Assembly: GCA_016182015.1 (NCBI GenBank)
Contig: JACOYC010000012.1
Span: 29,623 to 93,622, forward strand
Source of the DNA: Nanobdellati archaeon
GTDB taxonomy: Archaea > Nanobdellota > Nanobdellia > UBA10117
Length of the DNA stretch: 64,000 nucleotides
Direction: 5' to 3'
Below the pieces are notes generated by a model. That model ran no database searches and had not been told where the DNA came from. It worked only from the letters and a program-made list of their open reading frames with translations. The translations under genes and the position numbers were made by a program. Position 1 is the first letter of the stretch. Every line of letters begins with the position of its first letter. Shown here piece by piece: positions 1,873-35,890 of this stretch.

Positions 1873-1873
1873 A

Positions 1874-2998: not shown

Positions 2999-3056
2999 AC
3001 CACATCAAAAATAAGTGCAGCAAAACAATTTTAAAACTTTCCTTCTTTACTTGTAA

Positions 3057-4226: not shown

Positions 4227-4246
4227 TATCTTTTGTTATATGTTTT

Positions 4247-22492: not shown

Positions 22493-24247
22493 TTATGCCA
22501 TTAGATTTGCCAGCTTTGCAGGATTGACTGCATAGAGATTCAGAAACTGCGTGACTTCCTTGAAACCCTTTATTCCTTTTTTCTGCATGCGCGCAAGCAG
22601 GCTTGCTCTCCTCTTGAGCTCCTGCTGAATATCGTTTTCTGTCCATCCGTGCCTCGAGGCTATTCTTTGCATCAAATGAGAATCAGATGTTGTAAAAACG
22701 TCCTGGCTTGGAATCCAGTGGGCAACCTCATTTGTCTTTAGCTGATTCCTCTCGCGGTCAAAGCCCTCGACCTCAACAATCTGGCTGACCTTTCTCACCA
22801 AACGCCCTTCAATTTTTGTCTTCTGCAAAAATACGATTACGTCAAGGTTTTCAAGCAGCGACATCGGCAGGCTTATCGGCCTCGTGGTAAATCTGTCTAT
22901 CACGCTGTTAATGTCATCTGCGTGCAAGGTTGACAGCGATGCGTGGCCCGTGGCCATCGCCTGAAACATTACAAATGCTTCTGCACCACGAACTTCGCCG
23001 ACGATAATATAATCCGGCCTCTGCCTAAGCGCGGCTTTCAGCAGGTCGAACATTGTTACCTCGCCGTATTTCTTCGGGCCGAAGCCGGTGCGCGCAACCT
23101 GCGGCATCCAGTTTGTGTGCATCAGTGTAAGCTCGGCGGTATCTTCTATCGAAACAACCTTTGCGGACGGGTTGATAAATTCCGCGATTGCATTCAAAAA
23201 AGTTGTTTTTCCGACGGCGGTCGTGCCTGCCACAAGAACAGATTCTCCTTCTTCGATGGCCAGCCACAGATAAGCGAGAATCATTGGATCAGCGGTTTGA
23301 AAATCCATTAAATCTATTACTGTCAGCGGTGTTTTGAAGAATTTTCGGATGCTGAAGTTAGAGCCTTTTCGCGCAATATCAGTGCCGTAAGTAATCTGCA
23401 GTCGCGAGCCGTCCGGCAGCGCAGCATCAAGCAGCGGCGCGGCTACAGAAACAGTCCTGCCGGATTTCTGGGCCAGCTTCATGGCAAATGCGTCCAGTTC
23501 ATCCTTTGATTCAAACCAGACGTTTGTCGGCATCTGCCCGTAAATCGGATTTCTGTGGAAAATAAAAATCGGCACGCCAGTCCCATCACAGGAGATATCT
23601 TCTATTTTCTGGTCGCGCATTATCGGCTCTATCCTGCCAAGGCCGATTGTATCGCGGTAAATGTAATATTTAACATTCAGTGCATCGTCGTCTTTTGGTT
23701 TTGCGCTGAGAAATTCCCATGCCTCGTTTATTTTTTCGTCAATGTAGCCGTAAATTTCCTCTTTCTCATGCAGCCTGCCGAAGTCAACTTCCAGCCTGTC
23801 GTGCAGTATTTCTATAGTTTTAGCAACCAAATCCTTGAGGTCCGGCGTAAGCTCCGGCTCGACAATGTGATAGATAAGCTGGTTGGCAATTTGGTTAAAA
23901 TGAATATCTGCATGAGCCAGCACGCGTTCCTTGCCGTGCCATTTTGTCTTGATTAGCGGATATGTTTCGTGAACTGTTTTGATTTTCCCGAGAAAGTCCT
24001 GTTTTTTTCCAAGCACTTCGTCAAATGTTTTTGGCAGCACAACTCGTTTGCCGCCGCCTTCAAGTTCCAGATGCGCCTCAGCTAATGTTTGTTTTGGCCT
24101 GCTATCTTCCGCAATCGGCATAGCAACTTCCTGCGCAGGAATTTCTGTAATAGATTGAGCTGGCTCTGTTGCCCGGCTTGCTGTTTCTGCCTGCTGCCGC
24201 TTGCTTCGCAGGCCTGCAAGCAATCCAAATAAAGCAAGGGTGGCCAT
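22493..24247 (-). CDS. Type IV pilus/archaellum-type secretion ATPase (FlaI/PilB/VirB11 family)
   Basis: Walker A AGTTAVGKTTFLNAIA, Asp box, His box; 584 aa. Confidence 0.85.
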   Translation of the reverse strand: MATLALFGLLAGLRSKRQQAETASRATEPAQSITEIPAQEVAMPIAEDSRPKQTLAEAHLELEGGGKRVVLPKTFDEVLGKKQDFLGKIKTVHETYPLIKTKWHGKERVLAHADIHFNQIANQLIYHIVEPELTPDLKDLVAKTIEILHDRLEVDFGRLHEKEEIYGYIDEKINEAWEFLSAKPKDDDALNVKYYIYRDTIGLGRIEPIMRDQKIEDISCDGTGVPIFIFHRNPIYGQMPTNVWFESKDELDAFAMKLAQKSGRTVSVAAPLLDAALPDGSRLQITYGTDIARKGSNFSIRKFFKTPLTVIDLMDFQTADPMILAYLWLAIEEGESVLVAGTTAVGKTTFLNAIAEFINPSAKVVSIEDTAELTLMHTNWMPQVARTGFGPKKYGEVTMFDLLKAALRQRPDYIIVGEVRGAEAFVMFQAMATGHASLSTLHADDINSVIDRFTTRPISLPMSLLENLDVIVFLQKTKIEGRLVRKVSQIVEVEGFDRERNQLKTNEVAHWIPSQDVFTTSDSHLMQRIASRHGWTENDIQQELKRRASLLARMQKKGIKGFKEVTQFLNLYAVNPAKLANLMA

Positions 24248-24277
24248 TAAATTAAAACACTTAGCATATTTATAAAG

Positions 24278-24727
24278 TTAGCTCAGCCTTAACCTTCCAG
24301 GCCCGATAAAGCTTATCTTAACCTTGCCAGCCGAGGAGCCAGAAGCGCCGTCAATTGTCGCGTTTTCCCAGATTAATGTTATGTTTGTGTTTTTTACTAT
24401 TTGCGGTTTGCCCAGCGTCCTGAACTCCAGGATTGTGTTCCTGCCGGCCAGCAGGTATCTCTGGTCGCCAACCGTCTCCGGAATCTCAAAAATCCTTGTA
24501 AAGTTCCTGACATCGTCAGTATATCTTGTCGTGGAGTTAACTGTAACCTTCATCTCAGCGATTGTTGCCAGCGCCTTGTTCAGGACTGCTTCGCCAAATT
24601 CACCTGCCGCGTTTTGAGTTGCAGATTTTTTGTATAGCTCAGATGCCGCGAAAACTCCGACTAGCATAAGGAATGATATGCCTAAAATAAGAAGCGCGTA
24701 TGTCGTGTTAAGCTGTGCCTTTTTCAT
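24278..24727 (-). CDS. Pilin-like protein with class III signal peptide
   Basis: MKKAQLNTTYALLILGISFLMLVGVFAA: charged leader plus hydrophobic helix. Confidence 0.6.
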   Translation of the reverse strand: MKKAQLNTTYALLILGISFLMLVGVFAASELYKKSATQNAAGEFGEAVLNKALATIAEMKVTVNSTTRYTDDVRNFTRIFEIPETVGDQRYLLAGRNTILEFRTLGKPQIVKNTNITLIWENATIDGASGSSAGKVKISFIGPGRLRLS

Positions 24728-24728
24728 T

Positions 24729-25313
24729 TTAAATCATGTTAACATCAACTATTTCTGTTGTGTTTCTTATGCAGCCAGGAATGCCCTCATTCGACTCAAA
24801 TGCCCAAGTTATGAAAATTAAATGGCTGCCGGCCCCGACAGCAGACTGCTGGCCAGGCCTTAGTCTTATGCGATAACAGTTCGAGCTTGTGTCGTTTAGT
24901 GTTATGTAATGCAAAGTCATTTCTATCGCGCCAAGTTCTGTCATGTAGGCCGGCTCGTCGATGCCAAGCCGCCCAAGCTCTGTCTTGTTTCCGATAAAAG
25001 TCCGGGAGTATGGCTGCGGCAACCTGATGTTAGCAACATATACTATGGAATTATTGTTTGTTCCATTGGTGTCAAGGAAAACCCTGCCTTTCTTAATCTG
25101 AAACGGAACAGACGCGCGAGCCTGCTCGCTCGCAGATTTTTTTATCGCCGCGTGAAGCTGAAGGAATTGGTTCTCCATCGCGGAAACATCGTCGCTGTTC
25201 TGCGCCTTTTGTATGTTTGGGACTGCCCACAAAAAAACACCAGTCATTACTGTAACAGCTATTGCAGTCAGTATCAAAAAACCAATCAGGCTGGAAACGC
25301 CGCGCTTGTCCAT
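24729..25313 (-). CDS. Pilin-like protein with class III signal peptide
   Basis: MDKRGVSSLIGFLILTAIAVTVMTGVF: KRG followed by hydrophobic helix. Confidence 0.6.
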   Translation of the reverse strand: MDKRGVSSLIGFLILTAIAVTVMTGVFLWAVPNIQKAQNSDDVSAMENQFLQLHAAIKKSASEQARASVPFQIKKGRVFLDTNGTNNNSIVYVANIRLPQPYSRTFIGNKTELGRLGIDEPAYMTELGAIEMTLHYITLNDTSSNCYRIRLRPGQQSAVGAGSHLIFITWAFESNEGIPGCIRNTTEIVDVNMI

Positions 25314-25433
25314 GCACAGAAATCTTGCCAGTGGTTAAATAATTGTATTATAAACTAAAGAGTGAAAACCAAAACCTAAATACGCCTAAAGCTTTATATT
25401 GGTTGTTATAATTATGAATGTGAGGTAAATAAA

Positions 25434-25772
25434 ATGGCCATTGCAGAATACCGAATACAAGTGCCAGCGACACACGGCCTGAAAAGGCAGTTGCGCCAGA
25501 ATCTGAAGTCCGGCACAGACACCCAGCTCTCTTCCCTAAAGGGCAGCGTGGACGAACTCCTTGGCATTATCAAGCAGGCCTCTGAATCCGAAGATGCAAA
25601 GCAGGTTTCTGAGATTGCAAAAAAACTTGACAAAATTTCCGAACAAAATGCTGCAATAATAGCGGTACTTACAGACCTTGCAAGCCTGATAAAAAATCTT
25701 AAGCCGCCATTCGATCCATCGCAGCCAAGGCTTCGCAGCACAGCAGGAATTGCATACCAGAGGACCAGATGA
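25434..25772 (+). CDS. Hypothetical coiled-coil protein at head of pilus locus
   Basis: 112 aa, no recognised domain. Confidence 0.4.
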   Translation: MAIAEYRIQVPATHGLKRQLRQNLKSGTDTQLSSLKGSVDELLGIIKQASESEDAKQVSEIAKKLDKISEQNAAIIAVLTDLASLIKNLKPPFDPSQPRLRSTAGIAYQRTR

Positions 25773-26314
25773 TATTCAAAATTAAAAAAACAGGTAGAAA
25801 AGCCCTGACACCAATAATCGCAGTCATACTTTTGCTCATGATGACTGTCGCGGCGGCAGGCGCGGCATTCTTCTGGATTTCCAGAATACAAGGGCAGATG
25901 CAGGGCGGCGTGGAATCTTTCGAAGGCAGGATTTTCGAGGGCATTGCATCGCAGATAAATGTTATTGATGCGGACTACTCCACAAGCTCCGAGAACTTGA
26001 CTATTTTCTTTCACAACACCGGCAACAAAAAAATCCCGCTGAAAAACACGGATGTGAACCCTACAACAACCTGGATTCTGAGAAACCCCGACCAGGAAGT
26101 TGTATGCTCAACGGACTGGAGCGGCAAAAGCACTAGTGTAGCATGCAGCGGGTGCGGCTCAACAGTCGAAGTTGACATAGGCCAGCTGAAGAGCATCTCT
26201 CTGAACACTGCAAACACTGCCTGTGATATAACAAAATATGGCGGCGGGAAGGCATTTACGTTTACAATAGATTTTTCAGGGCAGACAACAACATCAGGCA
26301 GCTTTATTTCTTAA
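25769..26314 (+). CDS. Archaeal type IV pilin-like protein (DUF1628-type N-terminus), paralog 1
   Basis: RKALTPIIAVILLLMMTVAAAGAAFFWISRIQGQ; Cys-containing C-terminal module with DWSG. Confidence 0.65.
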   Translation: MIFKIKKTGRKALTPIIAVILLLMMTVAAAGAAFFWISRIQGQMQGGVESFEGRIFEGIASQINVIDADYSTSSENLTIFFHNTGNKKIPLKNTDVNPTTTWILRNPDQEVVCSTDWSGKSTSVACSGCGSTVEVDIGQLKSISLNTANTACDITKYGGGKAFTFTIDFSGQTTTSGSFIS

Positions 26315-26354
26315 TAGGAAAGCTTATATTAGAATAAATTAAAGACAATATAAA

Positions 26355-26987
26355 ATGGCCACTACGAAACGTGCAATAGCGCGCAGCCTGCTGGCTCCGC
26401 GAATTGCTTTTTCAAATAGAAAAGCAATAATGCAGAACAGAGTTCCGCAAATTGCATTTCGTCCGCGAAACGCGATTACACCAATAATCGCAGTCATAAT
26501 GCTGTTGATGATGGCGGTAGCCACTGCGTCAGCAATGTATTACTGGTTAAACAGGATACAAACGCAGCAGCAGGGCGCGATAGAAAGCTTTCAATCAGGC
26601 GTGTTTGAAAACCTTGCGTCTAACGTAGATATAATCGGAACAAAATACATAGACGGCAACCAAACCCTGGAGCTGGTAGTAGAAAATACTGGCAATACAA
26701 AAATTACTATCTCGAACTCTGGCACAAAACCGACAACTGAGTGGACTGTGCTTGACTCTGACCAAAAGCCCGTGTGCGCGGTAGACTGGAGCGGGACTGG
26801 CAGCAACACGCGCTGTCTCTCCGGCTGCGGAACTTCGACTATTCTTAATACTGGCCAGATAAGGCGCATCCTGCTTAATTTGACCGCCAGTGACTGCGCA
26901 ATACAATACCTTGCGAATGGCTCTACATTCACATTCGAAATAAGCTGGAGCGGCAAAACAAAATCCGCAGGGAGCTTTGTAAAATAA
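26355..26987 (+). CDS. Archaeal type IV pilin-like protein, paralog 2 (probable true start 26430)
   Basis: MQNRVPQIAFRPRNAITPIIAVIMLLMMAVATASAMYYWLNRIQTQQQG; C-terminal VDWSG...CLSGCG. Confidence 0.65.
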   Translation: MATTKRAIARSLLAPRIAFSNRKAIMQNRVPQIAFRPRNAITPIIAVIMLLMMAVATASAMYYWLNRIQTQQQGAIESFQSGVFENLASNVDIIGTKYIDGNQTLELVVENTGNTKITISNSGTKPTTEWTVLDSDQKPVCAVDWSGTGSNTRCLSGCGTSTILNTGQIRRILLNLTASDCAIQYLANGSTFTFEISWSGKTKSAGSFVK

Positions 26988-26988
26988 A

Positions 26989-27918
26989 ATGCAATATAAG
27001 GCTGTAACGCAGGACAGAGTTCCGCGAATTTTTTGTTCCAGGAAAACAATTACTCCGATTATAGCAGTCATACTGACTATGATGATTGCAGTTGCAGCTG
27101 GCGGCGCAATGTTTTATTGGATAAGCAGGCTTCAGACGCAGGACCAAGGCGCAGTTACGCAGTCTCAGCAAAGGCTTTTTGAAACACTGTCGGCCTGCCT
27201 ATCACTATCATCTTTTGACATGAACTTAATTAGCAACAGATCAAACTTCGTACTGCAGAACTGCGGCAGCACAAAAATAAATTTTGGAGATGCAAATGCT
27301 GAGGACTTTGGCATAATCAGCTCGCAGGGAATAGATCCGTGCACTTTTAGTGTAAACACAACAAGCTGTATCGGCTGTCCGGTTTTTCTTAAACCCGGGG
27401 AGGCCGCAACACTGTCGCTGAATTGGACAAACGAAAAACGTTGTGTCGGCCAGATCGTGGCTGGCAAGCAATATCAAGTATTATTCAACGTCGACAGGAC
27501 GGTCAGTGCATCGCGCGATTTTGTGCCTGAATCAGCAGCAAGATGCGGCTTAAATTTTGAGAACGCCACAAGGCTGGCCGCACAGGCACACCACGCAGGC
27601 AACCCACCAAGCTACTGCTACAAGTTCCAGCTGACAAACACCGGCAACGCGGCCGACACATACAACTTTACAAATTCTACCGGTACAAACTGCGGCTCTG
27701 CTCGCATACTTACAATCGGCTGTGGGGCAACGGGAATTGCGAACCACACAATATCGCTGGCTGCAAGCGAAAACTACACAATTTATTTTAACCAGACTGT
27801 AATAACCGCGGATTTAACTTGCACAAGTACCATTACTGCAGCCTCGCTCAACTGCAGCGCAAGCATATCTAAGGACACCAGCACTTCATATATATCTCCA
27901 GGGGATGCCGCACAGTAA
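26989..27918 (+). CDS. Archaeal type IV pilin-like protein, paralog 3
   Basis: DRVPRIFCSRKTITPIIAVILTMMIAVAAGGAMFYWISRLQTQDQG; extended Cys-rich C-terminus. Confidence 0.65.
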   Translation: MQYKAVTQDRVPRIFCSRKTITPIIAVILTMMIAVAAGGAMFYWISRLQTQDQGAVTQSQQRLFETLSACLSLSSFDMNLISNRSNFVLQNCGSTKINFGDANAEDFGIISSQGIDPCTFSVNTTSCIGCPVFLKPGEAATLSLNWTNEKRCVGQIVAGKQYQVLFNVDRTVSASRDFVPESAARCGLNFENATRLAAQAHHAGNPPSYCYKFQLTNTGNAADTYNFTNSTGTNCGSARILTIGCGATGIANHTISLAASENYTIYFNQTVITADLTCTSTITAASLNCSASISKDTSTSYISPGDAAQ

Positions 27919-29281
27919 CATGAAAGCCATAAATTGTTTTGGAAAACGCTCAGCTACAGAAGTACTGACAGTAATATTGTTAGTCATGATTCTTGTAGCA
28001 GTGGCATCCGTGGCTGGCTACTGGCTGACAGGCATACAGCAAAGCCAGCAGGGGCGAACAGAGCAGTCACAGTCTTCGCTCATAACAACGCTGTCAAGCT
28101 GCCTGAACTTCGAAAGCTTTCACTATGATACAAGAAGCAAAAAATCAGATGTTGTGTTCGAGAATTGCGGCACAACAAAACTTGATGTCGGTGATGTAAG
28201 AATAGGAGATTTAGTTCAACTGTCCGGCCCGAACGTTGATCCGTGCTCATTCACGCTAAACACTACAAACTGCCCTGCCTGCCCATTCACGCTTCAGCCC
28301 AAATCAAAGCAAAAATTTTCTATCGCCTGGAATGCCGAGCCGGCCTGCTCAAGCCGTATAGTCAAGGGCATAAAATACCAGGTCTCTTTTTTTGTTGACC
28401 GGCTTGGCACAGGCTCAAAAACATTTTTGGCGCAGGACGAGCCGCTTACAAAAACTCTGGGACTTTCAACAAGCTGCGGAATAGATGTTATTAACGCAAC
28501 AACTGGAGTTAACACGCCCTGGGAGGCCAAAGACTCAAGCTACTGCTTTGCGTTTGCTGTTAATAAAACCGGCACCCTCGGCGGCCTTATAACAATACAA
28601 AACACATCTACCTCTGGCAGCTGCAAGCGGGCGGAGATTACAACCCTATCAGGTGCGCCGGCAGGCTTTGACCCTAACAGGGCTGCCTGCACAGAAACAT
28701 TTCGCACGGCGGGCACCTTCGGCTCGCCCCAATCTTTGGCATCATTCGGTGTTTACCTGACAAACAGCAGTGCCGGCGGATGCAACCAGACAATACAATT
28801 TGGTCTGAACGACTGCGGCGACTTTGTTTCCAAAACAGTAAACTTTAGAGTTGGCACTGGCGTAGTTGGTGACACAAACACATTATGTAATATAACTTTT
28901 GATCCGACAAGCTCAACAGGGCCAACAAACCTGACAAATGTAACAAATTATATATTCAGCGCAAATTTCGTAAATAACGGCTCCACAGTTGATAATGTAA
29001 CAGTCAAAAATCTGAGCGTAACAACAACTAACTGCGCAAGCATGCGGTTTACAAAAGGTACAGGCGCGCAGTGTTCCCAAAATACTGCTGGCGAGTTTAG
29101 CGCAGCTGCCGGCGCGGAGGTCGGCTTTGACACTGGTATGGGCAGTGCGCAAAGGCTCTGCTTGCAGTTAAACCTTACACAAGGTACCGGGGCAGGACAG
29201 TGCACGCTAAGACTGTTTGTAAACTCGAGCGCGTGCACGAACGCATCTGTAACAAAAGAGTACGCCGTAGGAACTTTTTAA
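27905..29281 (+). CDS. Archaeal type IV pilin-like protein, paralog 4 (largest, 458 aa)
   Basis: KRSATEVLTVILLVMILVAVASVAGYWLTGIQQSQQG; long Cys/Thr/Asn-rich C-terminal region. Confidence 0.6.
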   Translation: MPHSNMKAINCFGKRSATEVLTVILLVMILVAVASVAGYWLTGIQQSQQGRTEQSQSSLITTLSSCLNFESFHYDTRSKKSDVVFENCGTTKLDVGDVRIGDLVQLSGPNVDPCSFTLNTTNCPACPFTLQPKSKQKFSIAWNAEPACSSRIVKGIKYQVSFFVDRLGTGSKTFLAQDEPLTKTLGLSTSCGIDVINATTGVNTPWEAKDSSYCFAFAVNKTGTLGGLITIQNTSTSGSCKRAEITTLSGAPAGFDPNRAACTETFRTAGTFGSPQSLASFGVYLTNSSAGGCNQTIQFGLNDCGDFVSKTVNFRVGTGVVGDTNTLCNITFDPTSSTGPTNLTNVTNYIFSANFVNNGSTVDNVTVKNLSVTTTNCASMRFTKGTGAQCSQNTAGEFSAAAGAEVGFDTGMGSAQRLCLQLNLTQGTGAGQCTLRLFVNSSACTNASVTKEYAVGTF

Positions 29282-29331
29282 GTTAGATATACGCATATTT
29301 AACAAATTACTGCGGCGAAAGTTTTATAAGT

Positions 29332-29366
29332 GTGTAAAAAGGTGTATTTTAGTGTAAGAAGGTGTA
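29332..29366. promoter_or_regulatory. Four GTGTA motifs at exact 10-bp phasing immediately upstream of RHH gene
   Basis: GTGTA at 29332, 29342, 29352 and 29362; the RHH ORF starts at 29370. Confidence 0.45.
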
Positions 29367-29369
29367 ATA

Positions 29370-29552
29370 GTGGCAGGCAAGCTCATAACAATTAAGATTG
29401 ACAGGGAGCTGTACGAAAGAGTCAAGAAAATTCTGGGCAAAAATGAGCTTAAGTACAAATATTCTTCTGTTGCAGCATTTACAAATGAGGCGTTATTTGA
29501 AAAATTAGAATCTTTGAAAGGAAAAATAAAGTTTCCGAAGATAAAGTGGTGA
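29370..29552 (+). CDS. Ribbon-helix-helix (CopG-like) small DNA-binding protein
   Basis: KLITIKIDRELYERVKKI beta-strand/helix pattern; 60 aa; GTG start. Confidence 0.5.
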   Translation: MAGKLITIKIDRELYERVKKILGKNELKYKYSSVAAFTNEALFEKLESLKGKIKFPKIKW

Positions 29553-29590
29553 AATGTCACAAAATTTCATAAGATTGAAGAAGCAAAATT

Positions 29591-30400
29591 TTGCGGACAT
29601 CATTCGCAGGAGCTCATGTGCACAAGGCCAGAATATCTATCCCAACAGAAAATTGGATTGCAATGATGTTTTTTGCGGCCCTGCTAGCCGGCGTAGCTAC
29701 ACTATTTTCCGCGCTGCTCATTACAATTATATCCGGTGCGCTTAGCGTTGTAGCAATTTTATTTTCCTTTGTTGCCGCAGCCCTGATCAGCGTTCTGACC
29801 GGACTATTAGTTTTGTATTATCCGGCAATGGCCGCTTCAGAGCGAAAGAAAAAAATCGAGAATGCACTTCCGTTCGCTACAATTTATCTTAACACGATTT
29901 CGCGGGCCGGCTTTCCGCCGCAGGATCTGTTCAAGATGATTGCAAAGTTCAAGGAATACGGGGAAGTTTCCGAAGAAGCCAAAAAAATTTCTAACGAAGT
30001 GCACGCGCTCGGGCTTGACCTGCCGTCCGCCCTTAATAACGCAGTAGCCCGTTCGCCAAGCAACTCGTGGACAGAGCTGCTGGCCGGCATGAAAACGACA
30101 ATAACTATCGGCGGTGACCTTGGCCAGTTCCTCTCGGAAAAGGCAAAGGGATTTGTTGCAGATTACCAAAGAAGACTGCAGGAGTTCAGCAATTTTCTTA
30201 CACTCATGATTGAGATTTACATAACATTAGTTATAGTGGGCGCGGTGTTTTTTATAATCACGACTTCGATAATGGTCTCGATAGGCGGCGTGCCTGTTGC
30301 GCTTGTGAAGGCGCTTAATTATGCAATTGTGCTTGTTGGCCTGCCGGTCATGACGGCTGCATTTTTGCTCATGATAAAAGGGGCGTCGCCGATGGAGTAG
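29591..30400 (+). CDS. TadB/TadC/FlaJ-like pilus platform membrane protein (T2SS-F domain)
   Basis: TM hairpins flanking a cytoplasmic domain with LPFATIYLNTISRAGFPPQDLF... Confidence 0.65.
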   Translation: MRTSFAGAHVHKARISIPTENWIAMMFFAALLAGVATLFSALLITIISGALSVVAILFSFVAAALISVLTGLLVLYYPAMAASERKKKIENALPFATIYLNTISRAGFPPQDLFKMIAKFKEYGEVSEEAKKISNEVHALGLDLPSALNNAVARSPSNSWTELLAGMKTTITIGGDLGQFLSEKAKGFVADYQRRLQEFSNFLTLMIEIYITLVIVGAVFFIITTSIMVSIGGVPVALVKALNYAIVLVGLPVMTAAFLLMIKGASPME

Positions 30401-30402
30401 AT

Positions 30403-31569
30403 ATGAAATTCAGCATACTTGGCAATTTGGGGTTCAGGGATCTGCTTGGAGTCAGGCGGGAGAAGCTTCAGTTTACTATCATGCTCCTGCCCGTTCCGCT
30501 CATAATCGCCCTGCTTCTTTTTTTATTAGGGGCCGCAAGTACGCTTGTAATAGCCGCGATAACACTCGGAATAATCGCGGTCCTGACACCATATCTCGCT
30601 CTTACATTTATAGAGTTTCAGGAGCTGTCGGCCGCAGAGGATGCGTATCCTAATTTCCTGCGCGACATGGCGGAAGCGGTTAACTCCGGCATGACAATAC
30701 CGTATGCCATACACACCGCGGCGCAGGCAAAGTATGGAGTCCTGTCAAAATATGTGAATAAGCTGAATTCATGGGTGTCATGGAGCCTGCCATTCCCGCA
30801 GGCATGGCAGAAATTTACAGAGTCGCTGAAAAAGTCAGAGCTGATTTCACGGGTTAACGGAATTATTCTTGAGGCGTTTGTTTCGGGCGGAGATGTAGGG
30901 ACTGTCCTTTCTTCTCTCGCAGACGATGTTAATCTGCTTAAGCGCATAGAATCAGAAAAAAAATCAATGGCGCGGCAGAATATAATAATAATGTATGTTA
31001 TATATTTTATTTTTCTCGGCATAATAATCGGGCTGTTTAAAATACTTGTGCCGATATTATATATACAGCGGCTTGGTGTTTTCGGCGGCCTCGCACTTAG
31101 GCCTTCTGACATAATCACAACAGATTATTTCAAGAATCTTTTTTTCCTAATGACAGTGATACAGTCAGCCTGCATTGGCCTGATTGCCGGCCAGATATCA
31201 GAGGAGCGCTTGATTGCAGGATTTAAGCATGTGATATTAATGGTCGGCCTTGGGACTGCGGTATTCTTTTTGGCGATTTTCCCTGCCGGCCTGACAGCAA
31301 CAGTTGAGGTATTTCCGCAGAATCCGTCAATCGGTCAGGACGTTATAGTCTCGGGGAGTTCTTTCTTTGAGGCAACGCCAGCCGCAGGTGCTACAGTAGA
31401 AATAATCACGCCGTCAAAAGAGGTTCTTGTTGTGTTTACCGATGGGCTTGGCGAATTTTTAACGAGCATGAAGTCACCGACGCAGGAGGGCACATATCCA
31501 ATCATTACAACAGTTACTTACAAAGGAGAAACAGCGACAGTGATAAGAACAATAACTGTGGGTGGTTAA
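30403..31569 (+). CDS. TadC/FlaJ-like pilus platform membrane protein (second T2SS-F domain) with C-terminal extracellular extension
   Basis: YPNFLRDMAEAVNSGMTIPYAIHTAA ... T2SS-F-like; adjacent to the previous gene in a different frame. Confidence 0.65.
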   Translation: MKFSILGNLGFRDLLGVRREKLQFTIMLLPVPLIIALLLFLLGAASTLVIAAITLGIIAVLTPYLALTFIEFQELSAAEDAYPNFLRDMAEAVNSGMTIPYAIHTAAQAKYGVLSKYVNKLNSWVSWSLPFPQAWQKFTESLKKSELISRVNGIILEAFVSGGDVGTVLSSLADDVNLLKRIESEKKSMARQNIIIMYVIYFIFLGIIIGLFKILVPILYIQRLGVFGGLALRPSDIITTDYFKNLFFLMTVIQSACIGLIAGQISEERLIAGFKHVILMVGLGTAVFFLAIFPAGLTATVEVFPQNPSIGQDVIVSGSSFFEATPAAGATVEIITPSKEVLVVFTDGLGEFLTSMKSPTQEGTYPIITTVTYKGETATVIRTITVGG

Positions 31570-32460
31570 ATGAGATATGATATTTTCAGAGTGAAAACCG
31601 CCCAGTCGTTTACTGAATTTTTAATAGCTGCGTTTTTATTTCTAATAATTGTATCTGCAGTTTTTATAACAGTCATTCGTAAGTCTGGCACGGAGACGGA
31701 ACGCGCTGCAGACTTAACATCATTCCAGAAGGCATCGATACTTTCGACTATTGCATTAAGAGATACGGGCCCCATCAGCTGGCAGAATTCTCCCGGCTTG
31801 CCTGCAATCTGCGGGCTTGGCGACGGAAATGGGCATGTCCTGCTTTCGAAGTGGCTGAGATTCAGCAATTATACATTTGATTTTTATGGCGGCTGCCTCG
31901 GCATCAACACAACTTGGCAGGCCAGCTATGCAATACGCGGCTTTCCGGACAGCCTTGATACAAACGCCGCGTGCACACCGACACGAGACAGGGCGGTTAT
32001 CTGCAGGTTTGCAAACGGGCTTGGTGTTTATGTTAACACAAGCAACAACGCGATATTAGATGCTGAGCTGTTTTTTCCAAATGCCACTTCGGCCACCGTC
32101 ACACAAAGCGTGGCCAGCCCGCTCGAGGCAAATGACGTTGCAACAACAGATGCAACTCCGGACGGCATAAAAGTTGTTCTGCAGCTGCGCACAAGCGCCG
32201 GAGACAGGGATAACATAACAATACTTGCCGTGCCATGGAATACTACTGCAGTAAAAAGTATATATTTCAAATCATTCGACAACCTGACAGACATTAATGT
32301 TACGATTGGAGATGTTAAGATACTTGATTCAATTGGCGTGCAGACAAGCGCGAGATTTTTCAAGCCGAATTTCGCAGAGATAAGACGCGGTGCCGCGATA
32401 AATAATACAAACACGGGAGATTTGTTTCCGGCCGTGTTCAAATTTGTGGTGTGGAGATGA
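31570..32460 (+). CDS. Pilin-like protein (class III signal peptide)
   Basis: KTAQSFTEFLIAAFLFLIIVSAVFI: Q-x-x-x-E-F-L-I motif. Confidence 0.55.
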   Translation: MRYDIFRVKTAQSFTEFLIAAFLFLIIVSAVFITVIRKSGTETERAADLTSFQKASILSTIALRDTGPISWQNSPGLPAICGLGDGNGHVLLSKWLRFSNYTFDFYGGCLGINTTWQASYAIRGFPDSLDTNAACTPTRDRAVICRFANGLGVYVNTSNNAILDAELFFPNATSATVTQSVASPLEANDVATTDATPDGIKVVLQLRTSAGDRDNITILAVPWNTTAVKSIYFKSFDNLTDINVTIGDVKILDSIGVQTSARFFKPNFAEIRRGAAINNTNTGDLFPAVFKFVVWR

Positions 32461-32921
32461 TGAACAAAAAGGGATACTATTATTTTATTGAGCTGGCCGT
32501 AATAGTTATAATAGTTGTGCTGATATTTTCACAGCTTCCAATCTCAAAGCCAGTGCATGCCGGCCAGATTGAAACGGAAAACCTCAGGCAGGTCGGGTTT
32601 GGAACACTTAAGGCGCTGGACGATTCCGGGTTTATATCTAAATATATGAACACCACGCATTTTCAGAATTCTTCGTTCCAGATGCTTCAGCAGGGAATTA
32701 AAGCCCCGCTCCCCAAAACAGTGATCGCAAGGCTTGAATATGTTTATAACTCGACCACATGCTACAACGAATCCGGCGCGTTTGGCGGCTGCGGCGTTAA
32801 TTTTACCGGCGGTTTATCCACAACTATTTATTATACTTTTACAAACAGGACAGAACCAATCACAATTAAGCTTTACCTTGCAAACATATTTGAGACTGCA
32901 GTAAAGGAGGCCAGCGGATGA
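32451..32921 (+). CDS. Pilin-like protein (class III signal peptide)
   Basis: MNKKGYYYFIELAVIVIIVVLIF. Confidence 0.55.
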   Translation: MEMMNKKGYYYFIELAVIVIIVVLIFSQLPISKPVHAGQIETENLRQVGFGTLKALDDSGFISKYMNTTHFQNSSFQMLQQGIKAPLPKTVIARLEYVYNSTTCYNESGAFGGCGVNFTGGLSTTIYYTFTNRTEPITIKLYLANIFETAVKEASG

Positions 32922-33622
32922 GGCGCGCGCAGTTTTGGGCGATTTCAATAATCTTGCTGTTTATTGTTACAGCAGTAATATTTACATACGTGCGCAGCTC
33001 TGAGTCCGCATCTGTAAGGCTGTTTGCTGAGACATCTGATTTGGAACTTCAGAACGCGGTTAATGCGATAAAAGCACGCAACGGCTGGCTGGCAAGCACG
33101 GCAAATGACTGGTTTAATCTTAACTGGAATTACAGGAAGCTTGTCGAACTTAATATTGGGGCGGACAGCACAGTTGAATTTAATGCATTTGTGAATGATG
33201 CAGGCAAGGTCGGCAGTTGCGTGGATGATGTTCGCGTTACGTGGATAAACGGTTCCGAGCGGCAGTCAAATGTTTCCGCGACTTCGCCGCCGTGCAACAT
33301 CACGATTGTGGCAGGAGCAGGCCCGCAAGTTTATTATGTTTATTACAGCAATCCGTCTGCAGCCACGCCAAGCTACAGGCTGGCAAACACAGTTGTTCAG
33401 GGAACAGAAACAGATGCAGTTGCTTATGCAGAAGTCGAGGTGCCAACAAAAAATCTGTGCACACATTTGAATGAGCTCTACCCGAAGTTAGGTATTGCAA
33501 CGAACTGCAGTTTGAGAAATACCGCCTGCGCAGCACCGGCAACGCAGGCAAATATTACTTTAGTGATGCAGAGCACTGATATGTTTTTTAATGGCACAAT
33601 ACAGCCGCCGCCCTGCCCATAA
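32918..33622 (+). CDS. Pilin-like protein (class III signal peptide)
   Basis: MRRAQFWAISIILLFIVTAVIF. Confidence 0.55.
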   Translation: MRRAQFWAISIILLFIVTAVIFTYVRSSESASVRLFAETSDLELQNAVNAIKARNGWLASTANDWFNLNWNYRKLVELNIGADSTVEFNAFVNDAGKVGSCVDDVRVTWINGSERQSNVSATSPPCNITIVAGAGPQVYYVYYSNPSAATPSYRLANTVVQGTETDAVAYAEVEVPTKNLCTHLNELYPKLGIATNCSLRNTACAAPATQANITLVMQSTDMFFNGTIQPPPCP

Positions 33623-33634
33623 TGTTTTAAATTT

Positions 33635-35890
33635 TTGTTTTGCTATTTGGTAATGCAACTGTCAGAATTAGGAAAAAAATTGCCGGCTAAGCTTTTAGAG
33701 AGCTTAAGCAAAACACAAGAACTCAGGCCATGCCAGCAGAAAGCGATTGATACTGGTTTATTGGAAGGGAAAAGCCTGCTGGTGTGCTCGCCAACCGGCT
33801 CGGGCAAAACACTCGTGGCAGAAATTGCCGCAGTAAAAAATATTCTCGAAGGAAAAGGAAAATGTGTTTACATCGTCCCGCTAAAATCGCTTGCCTCAGA
33901 AAAATTCGAGGAGTTTAAAAATAAATATGAAAAGCTTGGAGTAAAGGTTGCAATTTCGATCGGCGATTTGGATTCGGCAGACCCGTGGCTGGCCGAGAAA
34001 GATTTTATCATCACGGTTTCAGAAAAGCTGGATTCTTTGATTCGCCATGGTGCGCCTTGGATTTCTCAAGTTGCCACTGTTGTGATTGACGAAATTCATC
34101 TGCTGAACGACCCTGGGCGCGGGCCGACACTAGAAATATTGGCGACAATGCTGAAGAAAATTCTAAAGAACTCTCAGTTTATCGCCCTCTCCGCAACGAT
34201 TGGCAACCCAAAAGAACTCGCCTCCTGGCTCTGTGCAGAATTAGTTGAAGATGCCTGGCGACCCGTAAAATTATATGAAGGAACGTTTTTTCCAAATGAA
34301 GTTGATTTCTTTGGCGGAAAGGAAAAGATAACCATTCCGGAAAAGTTTTCTGAGCCGGCAGTCCAGCTGGCAATAAACACGATCGCGATTGGCAAGCAGG
34401 CCCTGGTGTTCTGCGCGACAAAACAATCGGCCGAGGCTATGGCAGAAAAAATTTCAAAAGCAAATGCAAATGTTCGGCAGGTTGATTTAGCAAAGAAAAT
34501 TTTGCACGCGCTCCCAAAACCAACTGTGCAGTGCAGAAGGCTGGCAAAATCTGTTCTGCGCGGCGTCGCGTTCCATCACGCAGGCCTTGTTCAAAAGCAA
34601 AAAAGCCTGATTGAAAATTCATTCAGGAGTGGCGCGGTAAAGATTATCTGCTGCACCCCGACTTTAGCGGCGGGCGTTAATCTCCCCGCATTCCGCGCGA
34701 TAATGAAATCCCTGAAAAGATATTCGGAGAAGTGGGGATACTCTTACATCCCTGTTCTCGAATATAAGCAGATGACTGGCCGCGCTGGCCGGCCCGGCAT
34801 GGAAGCATTTGGCGAAGCCATATCCATCGCCGGCTCTGAGGATGAGGCGCGCGAGATTTACGACAAATATATCTGTGGCACGCCGGAGGAGATCGATTCA
34901 AAGCTTGCAGTTGAGCCAGTTCTGAGGATGGCAATTCTTGGCCTGATAGCATCCGGCTTCTGCAGGACTGCTGAATCAGTGATAGAATTTTTTGGAGACA
35001 CGTTTTACGGATTTTCATACGCAAACGATTACGAAATTAAATCTAACGCAAGCCGAACAAGTTCGGCTGCGCCCAGTCGAATAGAATTCGACTTGGGAAT
35101 TATGAAAATTCTGCAGAAATTAAAAGATTACAAATTTATTGAACAAAACGCGGAAAAGATTTATGCGACTTACTTGGGAAAACGGGTTGCTGAGCTATAT
35201 TTGGATCCGGAGTCCGCATTTACTCTAATTAACGGATTGAAAATTGCGGATGTTGCTGAAACGCAGACAATTTCTTACTTGCATTTGATTTCTTCTGTAA
35301 TTGAAATTCCAAATCTAAAATTCAGGAAATCAGATTCTGAGTTCTTGCAGGAGAAGCTGATCGAGCTCGAGCAATACCTGCTGGCCAAGCCGCCTTCAGA
35401 ATTCTCTTGGGAGTATGAGGAATTTCAGGATTCTTTCAAGACCGCTTTGTTGTTTGAGGATTGGATTTCGGAGATGTCCGATGATGAGCTGATGGAAAAA
35501 TATAAAATCCGGCCTGGTGAGCTTCGCACTAAGTTAGCAAACGCAGACTGGCTTCTGTATTCGTGCCAGGAGATTTCACGCATTTTAAACTTCAAGGATT
35601 TAATTTCCGAGCTTATCAAATTGCGCGTCAGGATGAAGCACGGGCTTAAAGAGGAGCTGCTGTCGCTGAAAAAGCTGAAGGGCATCGGCAGGTACAAAGC
35701 CCGCAAGATGTTTCGTGCTGGCCTGACAAGCATACAGAAAGTAAAGGAAGCAAAGTATGAGCTGCTTGCCGGTCTGATCGGCCCGAGGACTGCTGTCAAG
35801 GTGAAGGGCCAGCTTGGGGAAAAAGTCGAGCCACAGCAAATAATTAAAAAGGGACAATCTGGACTTTCTGATTATGGGGCTGTAGTCTAA
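33635..35890 (+). CDS. hel308: Hel308/Ski2-like ATP-dependent DNA helicase
   Basis: Walker A SPTGSGKT, DEIH box, 751 aa, C-terminal HhH/WH domain. Confidence 0.85.
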   Translation: MFCYLVMQLSELGKKLPAKLLESLSKTQELRPCQQKAIDTGLLEGKSLLVCSPTGSGKTLVAEIAAVKNILEGKGKCVYIVPLKSLASEKFEEFKNKYEKLGVKVAISIGDLDSADPWLAEKDFIITVSEKLDSLIRHGAPWISQVATVVIDEIHLLNDPGRGPTLEILATMLKKILKNSQFIALSATIGNPKELASWLCAELVEDAWRPVKLYEGTFFPNEVDFFGGKEKITIPEKFSEPAVQLAINTIAIGKQALVFCATKQSAEAMAEKISKANANVRQVDLAKKILHALPKPTVQCRRLAKSVLRGVAFHHAGLVQKQKSLIENSFRSGAVKIICCTPTLAAGVNLPAFRAIMKSLKRYSEKWGYSYIPVLEYKQMTGRAGRPGMEAFGEAISIAGSEDEAREIYDKYICGTPEEIDSKLAVEPVLRMAILGLIASGFCRTAESVIEFFGDTFYGFSYANDYEIKSNASRTSSAAPSRIEFDLGIMKILQKLKDYKFIEQNAEKIYATYLGKRVAELYLDPESAFTLINGLKIADVAETQTISYLHLISSVIEIPNLKFRKSDSEFLQEKLIELEQYLLAKPPSEFSWEYEEFQDSFKTALLFEDWISEMSDDELMEKYKIRPGELRTKLANADWLLYSCQEISRILNFKDLISELIKLRVRMKHGLKEELLSLKKLKGIGRYKARKMFRAGLTSIQKVKEAKYELLAGLIGPRTAVKVKGQLGEKVEPQQIIKKGQSGLSDYGAVV

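Follow-up and report, generated by a model that had tools for sequence, protein, structure and literature searches.

A conserved DPANN type IV pilus-type gene cluster with modular pilin paralogs

Introduction

Several described filament systems share parts with the gene cluster reported here. The Epd pilus of Methanococcus maripaludis, the archaeal TFF 'System 1', comprises the EpdL ATPase, a two-gene platform (EpdJ and EpdK), the EpdA-E pilins, and the EppA peptidase. It has many pilin genes, is reported in DPANN, and has a major pilin of ~70 aa without a globular domain. Euryarchaeal clade 2, or 'System 2', is represented by PilA1-6 of Haloferax volcanii together with PilB3/PilC3, and includes the minor pilin arCOG02911, a group of variable-length, Ig-like archaeal proteins (PMC4858521). 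Many clade 2 loci contain two tadC-like genes (PMC4858521); the platforms of System 2 are single genes according to a 2026 census, which also catalogues split-platform, pilin-rich systems in DPANN (bioRxiv 10.64898/2026.04.22.720090).

The archaellum (ArlB, ArlF, ArlG, ArlH, ArlI, ArlJ, and ArlCDE or ArlX) keeps all seven of its components in every archaellated archaeon (Makarova et al.), and archaellum-like filaments drive the swimming of a DPANN archaeon (PMC11104419). Among bacteria, the Tad/Flp pilus combines the CpaF/TadA ATPase with TadB, TadC and the TadE/F pseudopilins, its Flp pilins being tiny and devoid of a globular domain. Bacterial modular pilins, such as PilB and PilC of Streptococcus sanguinis, CofB of ETEC, and TcpB of V. 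cholerae, carry one or more extra modules grafted onto the C-terminus of a pilin module; such modules are presumed to sit at the pilus tip and serve adhesion, and architectures with several copies of a module exist (PMC8179133).

Results

The locus was found in a metagenome-assembled genome, within a window of 64 kb (the whole stretch of DNA analysed). All 14 genes named in an initial sequence-only reading are present, and an ORF check returned the same coordinates, strands, and lengths. The following features were considered, with a slash marking predicted cleavage sites:

22493..24247, minus strand: assembly ATPase, 584 aa, an archaeal FlaI/GspE/PilB-type secretion ATPase with a PilB3-like C-terminal domain
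24278..24727, minus strand: p149, 149 aa, predicted class III-type signal MKKA/QLNTTYALLILG and a single N-terminal hydrophobic segment
24729..25313, minus strand: p194, 194 aa, predicted signal MDKRG/VSSLIGFLIL
25314..25433, no strand: region between the divergent p194 and cc112 genes; a BRE/TATA-like box, AAAGCTTTATAT, stands at 25388, ahead of cc112
25434..25772, plus strand: cc112, 112 aa, a small cytoplasmic helical (coiled-coil-like) protein encoded upstream of pilin A
25769..26314, plus strand: pilin A, 181 aa, predicted class III signal GRKA/LTPIIAVILLLMM and one beta-sandwich pilin domain
26355..26987, plus strand: pilin B, 210 aa (mature ~170 aa), predicted signal ...RNA/ITPIIAVIMLLMM after a leader expanded to 40 aa
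26989..27918, plus strand: pilin C, 309 aa, a pilin module (helix 22-68, beta-sandwich 71-178) followed by an extra beta-sandwich module (188-299)
27905..29281, plus strand: pilin D, 458 aa by the longest ORF (453 aa with the start at 27920 in the NCBI annotation), a pilin module and two copies of the C-type module
29370..29552, plus strand: 60-aa ORF, with a BRE/TATA-like box at 29318 ahead of its start
29591..30400, plus strand: platform protein 1 (TadB-like), 269 aa, one T2SSF domain
30403..31569, plus strand: platform protein 2 (TadC-like), 388 aa, one T2SSF domain and a C-terminal extension of ~90 aa
31570..32460, plus strand: p296, predicted signal KTA/QSFTEFLIAAF (Gln +1, Glu +5) and an N-terminal TM segment
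32451..32921, plus strand: p156, predicted signal NKKG/YYYFIELAVIV and an N-terminal TM segment
32918..33622, plus strand: p234, predicted signal MRRA/QFWAISIILL and an N-terminal TM segment

The ATPase matches the Pfam families T2SSE (2.9e-35) and, above its cutoff of 27, PilB3_C (28.2 bits). Among PDB sequences it is closest to afGspE (2oap; 2.8e-112) and FlaI (1.6e-83), far ahead of CpaF (2e-41) and VirB11 (4e-20), in agreement with its initial description as FlaI/PilB-like; on the same figures, a VirB11 identity was rejected. Both NCBIfam matches stay below their cutoffs (FlaI model, 434 bits against 550; VirB11, 132 against 250). The proposed TadB/TadC-like pair is likewise confirmed: platform proteins 1 and 2 each have a single T2SSF domain in Pfam (1.9e-16, in one stretch, and 6.6e-15), and BLASTP finds no similarity between them. 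Platform protein 1 is conserved as the neighbour of the ATPase in 20 or more DPANN loci. Its 5' end shows a net 23-nt deletion relative to a related locus (L001), which places the ancestral ATG (29554) out of frame. Platform protein 2 has 99 homolog clusters. Most are 370-400 aa long, and almost every one matches T2SSF once; the few homologs with a source name come from DPANN, Nanoarchaeota or DHVE6.

Pilins A-D are true paralogs, their similarity in pairwise BLASTP being far beyond chance (A-B 2e-56, A-C 2e-21, A-D 1e-14, C-D 3e-47). Their N-termini follow a class III-type signal peptide pattern, [KR]x[AGS]/ITPIIAV..., and several observations bear this prediction out. Pilin A passes TIGR02537 (35.7 bits, cutoff 20), with B, C, and D just below the cutoff; residues 41-65 of B align with the mature N-terminus of Iho670 (start I41); and the modelled helix of C begins at the predicted +1/+2 residue (AlphaFold). 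Leaders of orthologs are canonical (MKRG/ITPIIA, MYRKA/ITPIIA), KRG/ITP and RKA/ITP matching PibD-type processing sites tabulated in PMC4371748. In this genome, position -1 is Thr in C and Ser in D. Of the N-terminus initially described as common to all four, (N/D)RVPxI...TPIIAVILLMM, the leader motif holds for B and C only, and the H-domain part fails for D (TEVLTVILLVM versus TPIIAVILLLM). The (N/D)RVPxI motif sits in a leader segment built of local DNA repeats; the leader of B has direct repeats of 18 nt, at 26396, 26444, and 26462.

The label 'DUF1628-type' had to be dropped: Pfam gives no PF07790 match at E<=0.1, and only sub-threshold matches to PF01917 (1.2e-3 for A; 1.4e-5 for B, 26 bits against a cutoff of 29.5). 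Pilin A is 93% identical overall to its L001 ortholog, 100% over the N-terminal mature segment (residues 13-58), and 61% identical to L004_183. Pilin B has 25 homologs, all of ~175-205 aa, those with a name being from DPANN. As one-domain pilins and the most conserved of the set, A and B are candidate major subunits.

The increasing size of the paralogs reflects, as had been suggested, accretion of C-terminal domains: a module profile HMM and the AlphaFold model of C count 0, 0, 1, and 2 copies of one module in A, B, C, and D, respectively. The model of C (pLDDT 85) shows a long helix and two beta-sandwiches; that of D is poor beyond residue 178 (pLDDT 56). An HMM built without D scores 28.5 bits at D ~186-320 and 14.3 bits at ~321-458, compared with 7.4 and 3.5 bits for the best of 200 shuffled controls. 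The score of the second copy varies with settings (6-14 bits), and the L001 ortholog of D gives two significant matches (2.9e-5 and 1.8e-5). The duplications are old rather than a recent series, since A, B, and C each have an ortholog in a distant relative. C-like pilins occur in several lineages and D in a narrow one; relatives in the C/D family bear other C-terminal modules, e.g. DUF2341. The extra module is an unannotated beta-sandwich, rich in cysteines and sequons (Cys counts of 4, 4, 13, and 19 and N-x-S/T counts of 1, 3, 10, and 15 in A to D). The C-terminal modules are thus Cys-rich, as first described, but the DWSG motif assigned to them lies in the pilin globular domain, and in A and B only. 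An AglB/glycosyltransferase cluster in the same window is consistent with so many sequons in C and D. Identity to L001 declines from 96-100% in A and 92-100% in B to 82-94% in C, 89% in the pilin domain of D, and 68-75% in its modules, a gradient in keeping with conservation of structural subunits and rapid evolution of exposed modules.

The two minus-strand and three downstream pilin-like genes are present as described, with predicted class III-type signals. Orthologs of p149 (weak DUF7266 match, 6e-4) immediately precede the ATPase in ten or more DPANN loci, the one in L004 reading MKSG/QQTILYALIV, and p194 (weak DUF7289 match, 4.7e-4; TIGR02537 0.037) is kept upstream of p149-ATPase across DPANN loci. 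The positions of the downstream genes are conserved as well, with ortholog signals NRNA/QSPAEF, KKA/QAFTEY, and MKG/QTWIEF for p296, KKG/FFFYVEIML and RKG/LFYWIELIL for p156, and KKS/QFFLIAM and SKG/QFYIITL for p234. One p296 ortholog (L017) matches DUF7287 weakly (2.7e-4); p156 and p234 have no Pfam match. Of the five accessory proteins, p149, p296, and p234 have Gln at +1, as do orthologs of p194.

The co-directional order pilins-p194-p149-ATPase-T2SSF-T2SSF-p296-p156-p234 recurs in nine of the Woese-, Pace-, and Nanoarchaeota loci fetched, and in reduced form in Undinarchaeota, one Nanohaloarchaeota contig, and several unclassified contigs. Most DPANN loci have 2-3 short pilin paralogs. Two to four pilins with five accessory pilin-like genes are what this conserved DPANN operon normally contains, and the locus is not, as the sequence-only reading held, unusually pilin-rich.

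Orthologs of cc112, which has no TM segment and no significant Pfam match, occupy the same position in L001 (86%), L009 (68%), and L013 and L014 (26-28%). The 60-aa ORF has an 88% identical ortholog in L001, between the ATPase and T2SSF genes, and was not detected in more distant loci. Its strand-helix-helix sequence pattern suggests an RHH fold; searches of Pfam and PDB sequences gave no match to back the proposed RHH regulator. A scan of both strands of the 64 kb for the motif AAAG(C/T)TT(T)ATA(T/A) gave only 11 regex matches, at nine distinct sites. Three of these precede cc112, B, and the 60-aa ORF by 35-55 nt, as BRE/TATA-like boxes that may act as promoters.

Discussion

Judged by its sequence, the locus is a fairly ordinary archaeal type IV pilus-type gene cluster of an uncultured DPANN (Woesearchaeota-like) archaeon, complete save for the signal peptidase. 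The initial assignment to this class stands, with class III-type signals on the pilins and an ATPase that groups away from VirB11. That the locus encodes no prepilin peptidase also proved correct, and extends to the 64 kb window: no multi-TM ORF there has the GxGD motif of A24 peptidases, and the ten plausible multi-TM ORFs match other Pfam families. We assume that the pilins are processed by a peptidase encoded outside the window.

The Epd system resembles the locus in its two-gene platform, its many pilin genes, the Gln +1 of four of the five accessory proteins, and the Glu +5 of p296, as in EppA substrates. Differences are the complete beta-sandwich domain of A and B, their PibD-type K-G/A/I-T-P site (cleavage before I), the absence of EppA from the locus and the window, and the PilB3-like C-terminal domain of the ATPase. 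That domain, the proximity to Archaeoglobus GspE, paralogous pilins with a common conserved H-domain, and the weak DUF7266, DUF7287, and DUF7289 matches recall System 2; however, the pilins lack a Pilin_N/DUF1628 match and are encoded in cis with the machinery. The Tad/Flp pilus shares two single-T2SSF proteins adjoining a related ATPase and accessory pseudopilin genes downstream, but archaeal GspE and FlaI are much closer to the ATPase than CpaF is. Bacterial modular pilins parallel C and D in architecture, yet have an IPR012902 N-terminus and vWA, lectin or beta-repeat modules with shown binding, whereas C and D combine an archaellin-like fold with a beta-sandwich module that is a putative adhesin.

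The observed gene content, paralogy, fold, module count, and operon conservation are best read as an adhesive DPANN pilus with A and B as major and C and D as modular minor pilins, which we consider probable. Nine proteins would carry class III signal peptides; Sec would insert them, and a PibD/EppA-type peptidase whose gene lies elsewhere in the genome would cleave them. A hexameric FlaI/GspE-like ATPase, working on a platform of two separate single-T2SSF proteins, would lift the processed subunits out of the membrane, and these would polymerise via their almost invariant N-terminal helices. C and D, with one or two Cys-rich, sequon-rich beta-sandwich modules behind the pilin module, would probably be incorporated rarely or at the tip, projecting the module as an adhesin, and p194, p149, p296, p156, and p234 would probably form a priming or cap complex. 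The likely use of such a pilus is attachment of a small episymbiotic cell to its host or a surface.

A second reading makes all of A-D major pilins, each forming its own filament under different conditions, like PilA1-6 of Haloferax volcanii; the cell could then exchange thin A/B pili for thick C/D pili decorated with modules, and back. The nearly identical H-domains of A-C, as in the six interchangeable PilA proteins of H. volcanii (PMC4371748), the separate BRE/TATA-like boxes ahead of cc112-A and B-C-D, and the short paralogs of most DPANN loci point this way. The diverged H-domain of D, the faster evolution of C and D than of A and B, and the very narrow range of D-type proteins make it unlikely, and we know of no described precedent for a shaft made only of three-domain subunits. 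The surface-protein reading of C and D, perhaps also of the accessory proteins, takes the class III signal as no more than a means to anchor the protein in the membrane or to display it on a short pseudopilus, comparable to the bindosome and SPIII substrate-binding proteins. Such signals are common on archaeal non-pilin surface proteins (bioRxiv 10.64898/2026.04.22.720090), and the same H-domain occurs on some very large DPANN proteins (1074 and 1342 aa; L051). As C and D retain the full pilin beta-sandwich domain plus helix, stand in tandem with A and B, and have no linked ABC transporter or substrate-binding domain, we regard this as highly improbable.

The locus could also encode a reduced DPANN-type archaellum, with A and B as archaellins and p194 and p149 replacing the ArlF/ArlG stator of a filament that rotates for swimming, as reported for Nanobdella aerobiophila. 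PF01917 is the sole Pfam family matched by A and B; A, B, and D weakly match ArlF/ArlG; the ATPase has FlaI as its top NCBIfam model; homologs bear the labels 'FlaJ' or 'flagellin-like' at JGI; and two small TM proteins are encoded directly upstream of the ATPase, like arlF and arlG. But all archaellum-type matches fall below curated cutoffs, p194 and p149 do not match the ArlF/ArlG models, the platform is split over two single-domain genes instead of one ArlJ, no ArlCDE or ArlX candidates were found, and no ArlH-like second P-loop ATPase is encoded here or, for seven related loci, within ~10 kb. Measured against the invariant component set of archaella, a swimming filament is very unlikely; the sub-threshold similarity to archaellin, ArlF, and ArlG models may leave room for an archaellum-like role.

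The adhesive pilus favoured here thus belongs to a class of DPANN split-platform systems that is already on record, and its pilin number is not exceptional. With bacterial modular pilins and the arCOG02911 minor pilins as precedents, the extra module of C and D probably helps a tiny cell to stick to surfaces or hosts.

Results

A rearranged copy of a conserved DPANN operon

The 14 ORFs that a sequence-only reading had assigned to the pilus locus (22493-33622) are all present, with the strands and sizes it described. The locus and its flanks comprise:

20731-22359, flanking thermosome gene
22493-24247, minus strand, assembly ATPase (584 aa)
beside the ATPase, minus strand, small pilin-like genes p194 and p149
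before pilin A, plus strand, helical gene cc112
25769-29281, plus strand, tandem pilin paralogs A, B, C and D (181, 210, 309 and 458 aa)
before the platform genes, plus strand, 60-aa ORF
29591-30400, plus strand, platform protein 1 (TadB-like)
30403-31569, plus strand, platform protein 2 (TadC-like)
downstream of the platform genes, plus strand, pilin-like genes p296, p156 and p234
33635-35890, flanking Hel308-type helicase

The thermosome gene and the helicase mark the window as archaeal. Protein D shares 100% identity with the NCBI entry 'hypothetical protein HYT16_02400 [DPANN group archaeon]', and the closest species-level genome is the groundwater 'Candidatus Woesearchaeota archaeon nzgw42'.

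A survey of one genome per GTDB species, scanned for loci encoding the A-D pilin family, yielded 44 loci, nearly all from DPANN archaea (Woese-, Pace-, Nano-, Undin-, Naiad-, Nanohalo- and Aenigmatarchaeota). The pilin H-domain, KKG/ITPIIAVILLLMMTVAAAGAAFFW (slash, predicted cleavage site), is almost invariant across them. Nine fetched loci from Woese-, Pace- and Nanoarchaeota carry the co-directional order pilin(s)-p194-p149-ATPase-T2SSF-T2SSF-p296-p156-p234, where T2SSF-T2SSF are the two platform proteins, and a reduced pilin...ATPase-T2SSF-T2SSF arrangement is kept in Undinarchaeota, one Nanohaloarchaeota contig and several unclassified contigs. The window locus is a rearranged copy of this conserved operon, with the p194-p149-ATPase block inverted. 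In the locus of a close relative (L001, 1-12338), p194-p149-ATPase-60aa-T2SSF-T2SSF-p295-p154-p233 form a single operon on one strand, and the pilin genes run divergently from it; these two close relatives (77-94% amino acid identity) differ in gene order. Given that seven to eight pilin-like genes are normal for the operon, the nine present here do not make the locus unusually pilin-rich, as had been proposed.

Several observations accompany the survey. In L001, pilins A and B are separated by an additional small membrane protein of 109 aa. A typical DPANN-type pilin (KKA/ITPIISVILLLMM) is encoded on a 3.6-kb contig labelled MAG: Sulfurovum sp., a bacterium (L048); the label is most likely a binning error. 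The thermosome gene adjoins the pilin cluster not only in the window but also in L001 (12584-14212) and in a distant groundwater relative (L004, 7417-9048), a synteny without obvious functional reason. A recurring AAAG(C/T)TT(T)ATA(T/A) box lies 35-55 nt 5' of start codons (25388, 26319 and 29318; also 11659-, 18180- and 60025-) and has the appearance of this organism's BRE/TATA promoter element. Its positions suggest three plus-strand transcription units, namely cc112-A, B-C-D, and the 60-aa ORF to p234. The 60-aa ORF, described as an RHH regulator, shows a strand-helix-helix pattern by eye only; its Pfam matches are all non-significant, and a PDB sequence search returned no match. An Rfam scan of the whole 64 kb found zero RNA families. 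The strong purine skew at 51825-56476 (reaching 0.33 for GC and 0.48 for AT) is caused by two large low-complexity proteins (673 and 831 aa) that are rich in Glu, Lys and Ala and free of Cys, the 673-aa one with a hydrophobic segment at its N-terminus; an rRNA operon was ruled out as its source by the absence of an Rfam match and by the proteins encoded there.

Pilins A to D: class III signals and a predicted archaeal pilin fold

The four tandem proteins are real paralogs, as pairwise BLASTP shows (A-B 2e-56, A-C 2e-21, A-D 1e-14, C-D 3e-47). Their class III signal peptides are supported by three observations: A passes the NCBIfam model TIGR02537 (35.7 bits against a cutoff of 20, which C, D and B miss with 18.2, 15.7 and 13.8); B aligns from Ile41 with the Ignicoccus fibre protein Iho670, at the N-terminus of its mature form; and ortholog leaders (MKRG/ITPIIAI, MRLNKRKRG/ISPVIAI, MYRKA/ITPIIAV) have the canonical form [KR][GA]/I[TS]P, in agreement with the PibD-type sites (KAIS, KGIS, RALS) that PMC4371748 lists for characterised pilins of archaea. 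The +1 residue of A and B is I/L.

Some details of the initial description needed revision. The (N/D)RVPxI motif occurs in the leaders of B and C, where it sits inside short DNA direct repeats common to both genes, but not in A and D. The hydrophobic N-terminus is shared, except that the hydrophobic domain of D has diverged, and the DWSG motif is confined to the globular domain of A and B rather than belonging to the C-terminal modules. The DUF1628-type label has no support from Pfam: PF07790 matched none of the nine pilin-like proteins at E<=0.1 and none of ten relatives scanned at E<=0.01, and the only related signal was a sub-threshold PF01917 match (cutoff 29.5) in A (19.6 bits) and B (26.0 bits), with no match in C and D and precomputed matches in some relatives.

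The leader of pilin B has grown to 40 aa (26355-26480), compared with 7 aa in L001 and 21 aa in another fetched locus (L009), via tandem 18-nt repeats (26396, 26444, 26462) that each encode a cleavage-site-like [KR]x-A-I motif. A 33-nt stretch of it (26421-26453) is 82% identical to the C leader at 26998-27030 (within 26989-27050), which suggests that sequence has passed between B and C.

An AlphaFold2 model of C from a 41-row alignment was good (pLDDT 85.3, pTM 0.65) and predicts a helix from the predicted cleavage site (22-68) followed by two separate beta-sandwich domains (71-178 and 188-299). C was modelled for its deeper alignment, the model of D (32 rows, pLDDT 56) being too poor to use past residue 178. 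The pilin subunit is predicted to have the archaeal pilin/archaellin fold, given the structures listed in the fold comparison; a Foldseek search of PDB returned nothing more specific than tandem Ig/Fn3 matches of low TM-score.

Table. Fold comparison of the pilin subunit (the figures carry no label).
S. acidocaldarius FlaF: 10.4
Pyrobaculum calidifontis flagellar-like type IV pilus: 10.0
M. hungatei archaellin: 9.9
S. solfataricus pilin: 9.9
P. arsenaticum pilin: 9.8
FlaG: 9.7
Aap pilin: 9.0

The size ladder reflects added C-terminal modules

A profile HMM of the extra module was built from the second domain of ten C-like proteins, with D left out. It matches D twice, at about residues 186-320 (28.5 bits) and 321-458 (14.3 bits), both matches being collinear and full length, whereas 200 shuffles reached no more than 7.4 and 3.5 bits. 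Searched against 2,428 ORFs, the HMM gave two independent module matches in the D ortholog of L001 (2.9e-5 and 1.8e-5), and in the window's D a first module at 7.8e-6 and a weak collinear second match. From these matches and the second beta-sandwich in the model of C, we assign A and B as bare pilins, C as a pilin with one predicted module and D as a pilin with two. Mature lengths of 168, 169, 288 and 441 aa for A, B, C and D are consistent with 0, 0, 1 and 2 modules. Most of the cysteines lie in the modules (13 in C and 19 in D, against 4 in each of the bare pilins), as do most N-glycosylation sequons (10 in C and 15 in D, against 1 in A and 3 in B). Every module detected in the window or in the fetched loci is fused to a member of the A-D pilin family. 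The pilin domains of A-D score no higher with the HMM than shuffled sequences do, and an origin of the extra module by copying of the pilin beta-sandwich is therefore not supported.

The proposal that the ladder arose by serial duplication with C-terminal domain accretion is therefore upheld for accretion (0/0/1/2 modules), but not for a recent serial event, since the distant groundwater relative encodes separate orthologs of A, B and C (61%, 55% and 38% identity), whereas identity between A and B themselves is only 44%. D-type proteins are rare, with only four among 5.8 billion clusters. The globular part of D has only 15 relatives among 1.84 billion representatives, and its last module matches its own ortholog only. 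These 15 share the pilin module while their C-terminal parts differ, DUF2341 included, which is the signature of a modular pilin family. In architecture, C and D are modular pilins sensu Raynaud et al. 2021, with a pilin module fused to one or more extra modules; the definition also asks that the extra module act directly in a function of the filament, which is a putative role here. Such pilins are well documented in bacteria (PMC8179133).

In an Aenigmatarchaeota MAG (L051, 10010-17382), proteins of 1342 and 1074 aa open with a DPANN pilin signal and H-domain (KG/VSPIIAVILLVMIV...), so that the modular-pilin theme reaches giant sizes in other DPANN phyla. Proteins of 421 and 301 aa with the same start are encoded in two further loci (L036 and L050).

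Assembly machinery and accessory proteins

The ATPase carries a T2SSE domain (2.9e-35; PF00437, 122 bits against a cutoff of 24.9) and a PilB3-like C-terminal domain (28.2 bits, gathering score 27). In PDB its closest match is Archaeoglobus GspE (afGspE, 2.8e-112), followed by Sulfolobus FlaI (1.6e-83), CpaF (2e-41) and VirB11 (4e-20), and the best NCBIfam model is FlaI, at 434 bits under a 550 cutoff. The VirB11 model TIGR02788 reaches 131.8 bits, under its cutoff of 249.95. The ATPase thus scores highest with afGspE and FlaI and far lower with VirB11, so that the VirB11-clade grouping that would have spoken against a pilus is not observed, and a VirB11 / T4SS system was rejected on both sets of scores. 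An exact-sequence look-up of the ATPase returned no record.

The TadB/TadC-like pair was recovered as two adjacent genes with one T2SSF domain each (PF00482, 60.6 and 55.6 bits against 25.2), between which BLASTP detects no similarity. The family of platform protein 2 comprises 99 clusters, most of them 370-400 aa long and, with few exceptions, showing one T2SSF match each; those bearing a source name are DPANN, Nanoarchaeota or DHVE6. This TadC-like protein has an extension of about 90 residues past its last predicted membrane segment (31290-31569; TATVEVFPQNPSIGQDVIVSG...), which is kept at full length in most of the 99 clusters; Undinarchaeota loci align to only about 240 residues of the protein, and the searches run returned no comparable annotation for the extension. 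The 5' end of the TadB-like gene (29545-29640) shows a net 23-nt deletion relative to its L001 ortholog. This puts the ancestral ATG (29554) out of frame, with the ORF now beginning at TTG 29591; either the protein has genuinely lost about 20 residues from its N-terminus or the assembly is in error.

All five accessory proteins (p194, p149, p296, p156 and p234) have one N-terminal hydrophobic segment after [KR]x[GAS]. Gln at +1 is kept in p149, p296 and p234, and Glu at +5 in p296, a pattern resembling the EppA substrates of the Methanococcus Epd pilus. Only weak matches to DUF7289, DUF7266 and DUF7287 were obtained, a weak hint of a haloarchaeal link at the sequence level, and a literature search on DUF7266, DUF7287, DUF7288 and DUF7289 found nothing. 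A by-eye assignment of p234 as DUF2341-like was dropped, as neither p234 nor any of four orthologs matches DUF2341.

The reported lack of a prepilin peptidase in the locus extends to the full 64-kb window: by GxGD motif and Pfam, no A24 peptidase and no multi-TM ORF with a GxGD motif was found, and all ten plausible multi-TM candidates belong to other families.

Discussion

The observation made from sequence is confirmed as a whole. Its interpretation stands with regard to C-terminal accretion and a pilus-type ATPase, but not for DUF1628-type pilins, unusual pilin richness or recent serial duplication. The locus encodes a T2SSE ATPase, a T2SSF platform and subunits combining a class III signal with a hydrophobic helix, as expected of the TFF superfamily; the remaining hallmark, a dedicated class III (A24) signal peptidase, is missing from the 64-kb window. 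Archaeal PibD is commonly encoded apart from pilus loci, and this absence therefore does not bar membership.

Could the locus instead encode an archaellum? Homologs bear database names such as 'flagellin-like' and 'FlaJ', there are sub-threshold matches to PF01917, ArlF, ArlG and FlaI, and swimming has been seen in a DPANN archaeon (PMC11104419). However, the locus has no ArlH-like P-loop protein, and seven related loci have none within about 10 kb (the only other Walker-A proteins of the window are an SMC and a 442-aa ATPase 25 kb away), and in the relatives examined the platform is split into two single-domain genes in place of a single two-domain ArlJ. The locus likewise lacks ArlCDE or ArlX-like Pfam matches, and all equivalog models remain below their cutoffs, FlaI as well as ArlF and ArlG (16-24 bits on A, B and D against cutoffs of 110; p194 and p149 unmatched). 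Lacking ArlH and ArlJ, an archaellum is rejected as very improbable.

Among pilus systems, features are mixed: judged by sequence, they appear partly System 1-like and partly System 2-like, with archaellin-like pilins in cis. System 1, as defined by the 2026 census (bioRxiv 10.64898/2026.04.22.720090) and PMC4371748 Table 1, includes the Epd pilus, which this locus resembles in its two platform genes with an ATPase and in combining a split platform with Gln +1 accessory signals. It differs in that no EppA-type peptidase is encoded within the 64-kb window, and whereas the Epd major pilin is short, without a globular domain and with Gln +1, a globular domain is present in A and B and their +1 residue is I/L. 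The PilB3_C domain and afGspE affinity of the ATPase recall System 2 (PilB3/PilB4-type), but the PF07790 PilA pilins of that system are not encountered here. The split platform agrees with clade 1 and many clade 2 loci, which have two tadC-like genes (Makarova et al. 2016, PMC4858521), while the 2026 census gives System 2 a single platform gene; two platform proteins also occur in some DPANN subsystem 4A loci (bioRxiv 10.64898/2026.04.22.720090).

For a pilus of this kind, precursors would be cut by a peptidase encoded elsewhere in the genome, and the ATPase and a heteromeric platform would polymerise A and B via their conserved helices; both steps are well supported by homology. The later steps we infer. 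By analogy to the minor pilins of bacteria, the five accessory proteins may serve to prime the filament or to cap it. C and D would enter rarely or at the tip and show disulfide-stabilised, glycosylated beta-sandwich modules. Compared with L001, A (96-100% identity) and B (92-100%) are conserved, C is intermediate (82-94%) and the D modules have diverged (68-75%), a pattern consistent with exposed, fast-evolving adhesin parts. The glycans could be provided by a protein-glycosylation gene cluster at 664-11625, which could act on the sequon-rich C and D:

664-1872 and 3057-4226, GT1/GT4 glycosyltransferases
1874-2998, radical SAM/SPASM enzyme
4247-5785, PMT_2-family transferase
5740-6759, GT2
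6710-7999, flippase-like Polysacc_synt protein
7992-9002, GT4 phosphotransferase
8980-11625, STT3/AglB oligosaccharyltransferase (881 aa)

Adjoining the AglB gene, a 544-aa protein (11689-13323, minus strand) with an N-terminal hydrophobic segment, 25 cysteines and no significant Pfam match may be another secreted or surface protein.

The pilus locus does not reveal a new kind of machine. It does define, gene by gene, an operon conserved in DPANN archaea, corrects database labels for genes variously named flagellin, FlaJ or hypothetical, and provides the near-invariant pilin H-domain as a search handle across several DPANN phyla. DPANN archaea need physical contact with their hosts, and the molecules mediating this contact are mostly unknown; the small modular pilin family described here offers, in its extra beta-sandwich modules, obvious adhesin candidates. 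A bolder reading, to which we give low credence, is that the operon builds a host-recognition organelle of Woese-, Pace- and Nanoarchaeota-type episymbionts, in which C/D-type pilins in the shaft set host specificity. Variable module type and copy number, fast evolution and sporadic incorporation into the shaft would then characterise these subunits. The two signal classes in one operon (I/L-T-P at +1 to +3 versus Gln +1) would imply two peptidase specificities, which could serve as a checkpoint placing cap assembly before shaft assembly. Under this reading, C/D-type subunits could also correspond to the 'thorn-like' densities that decorate the 9-nm filaments of Nanobdella aerobiophila (PMC11104419).
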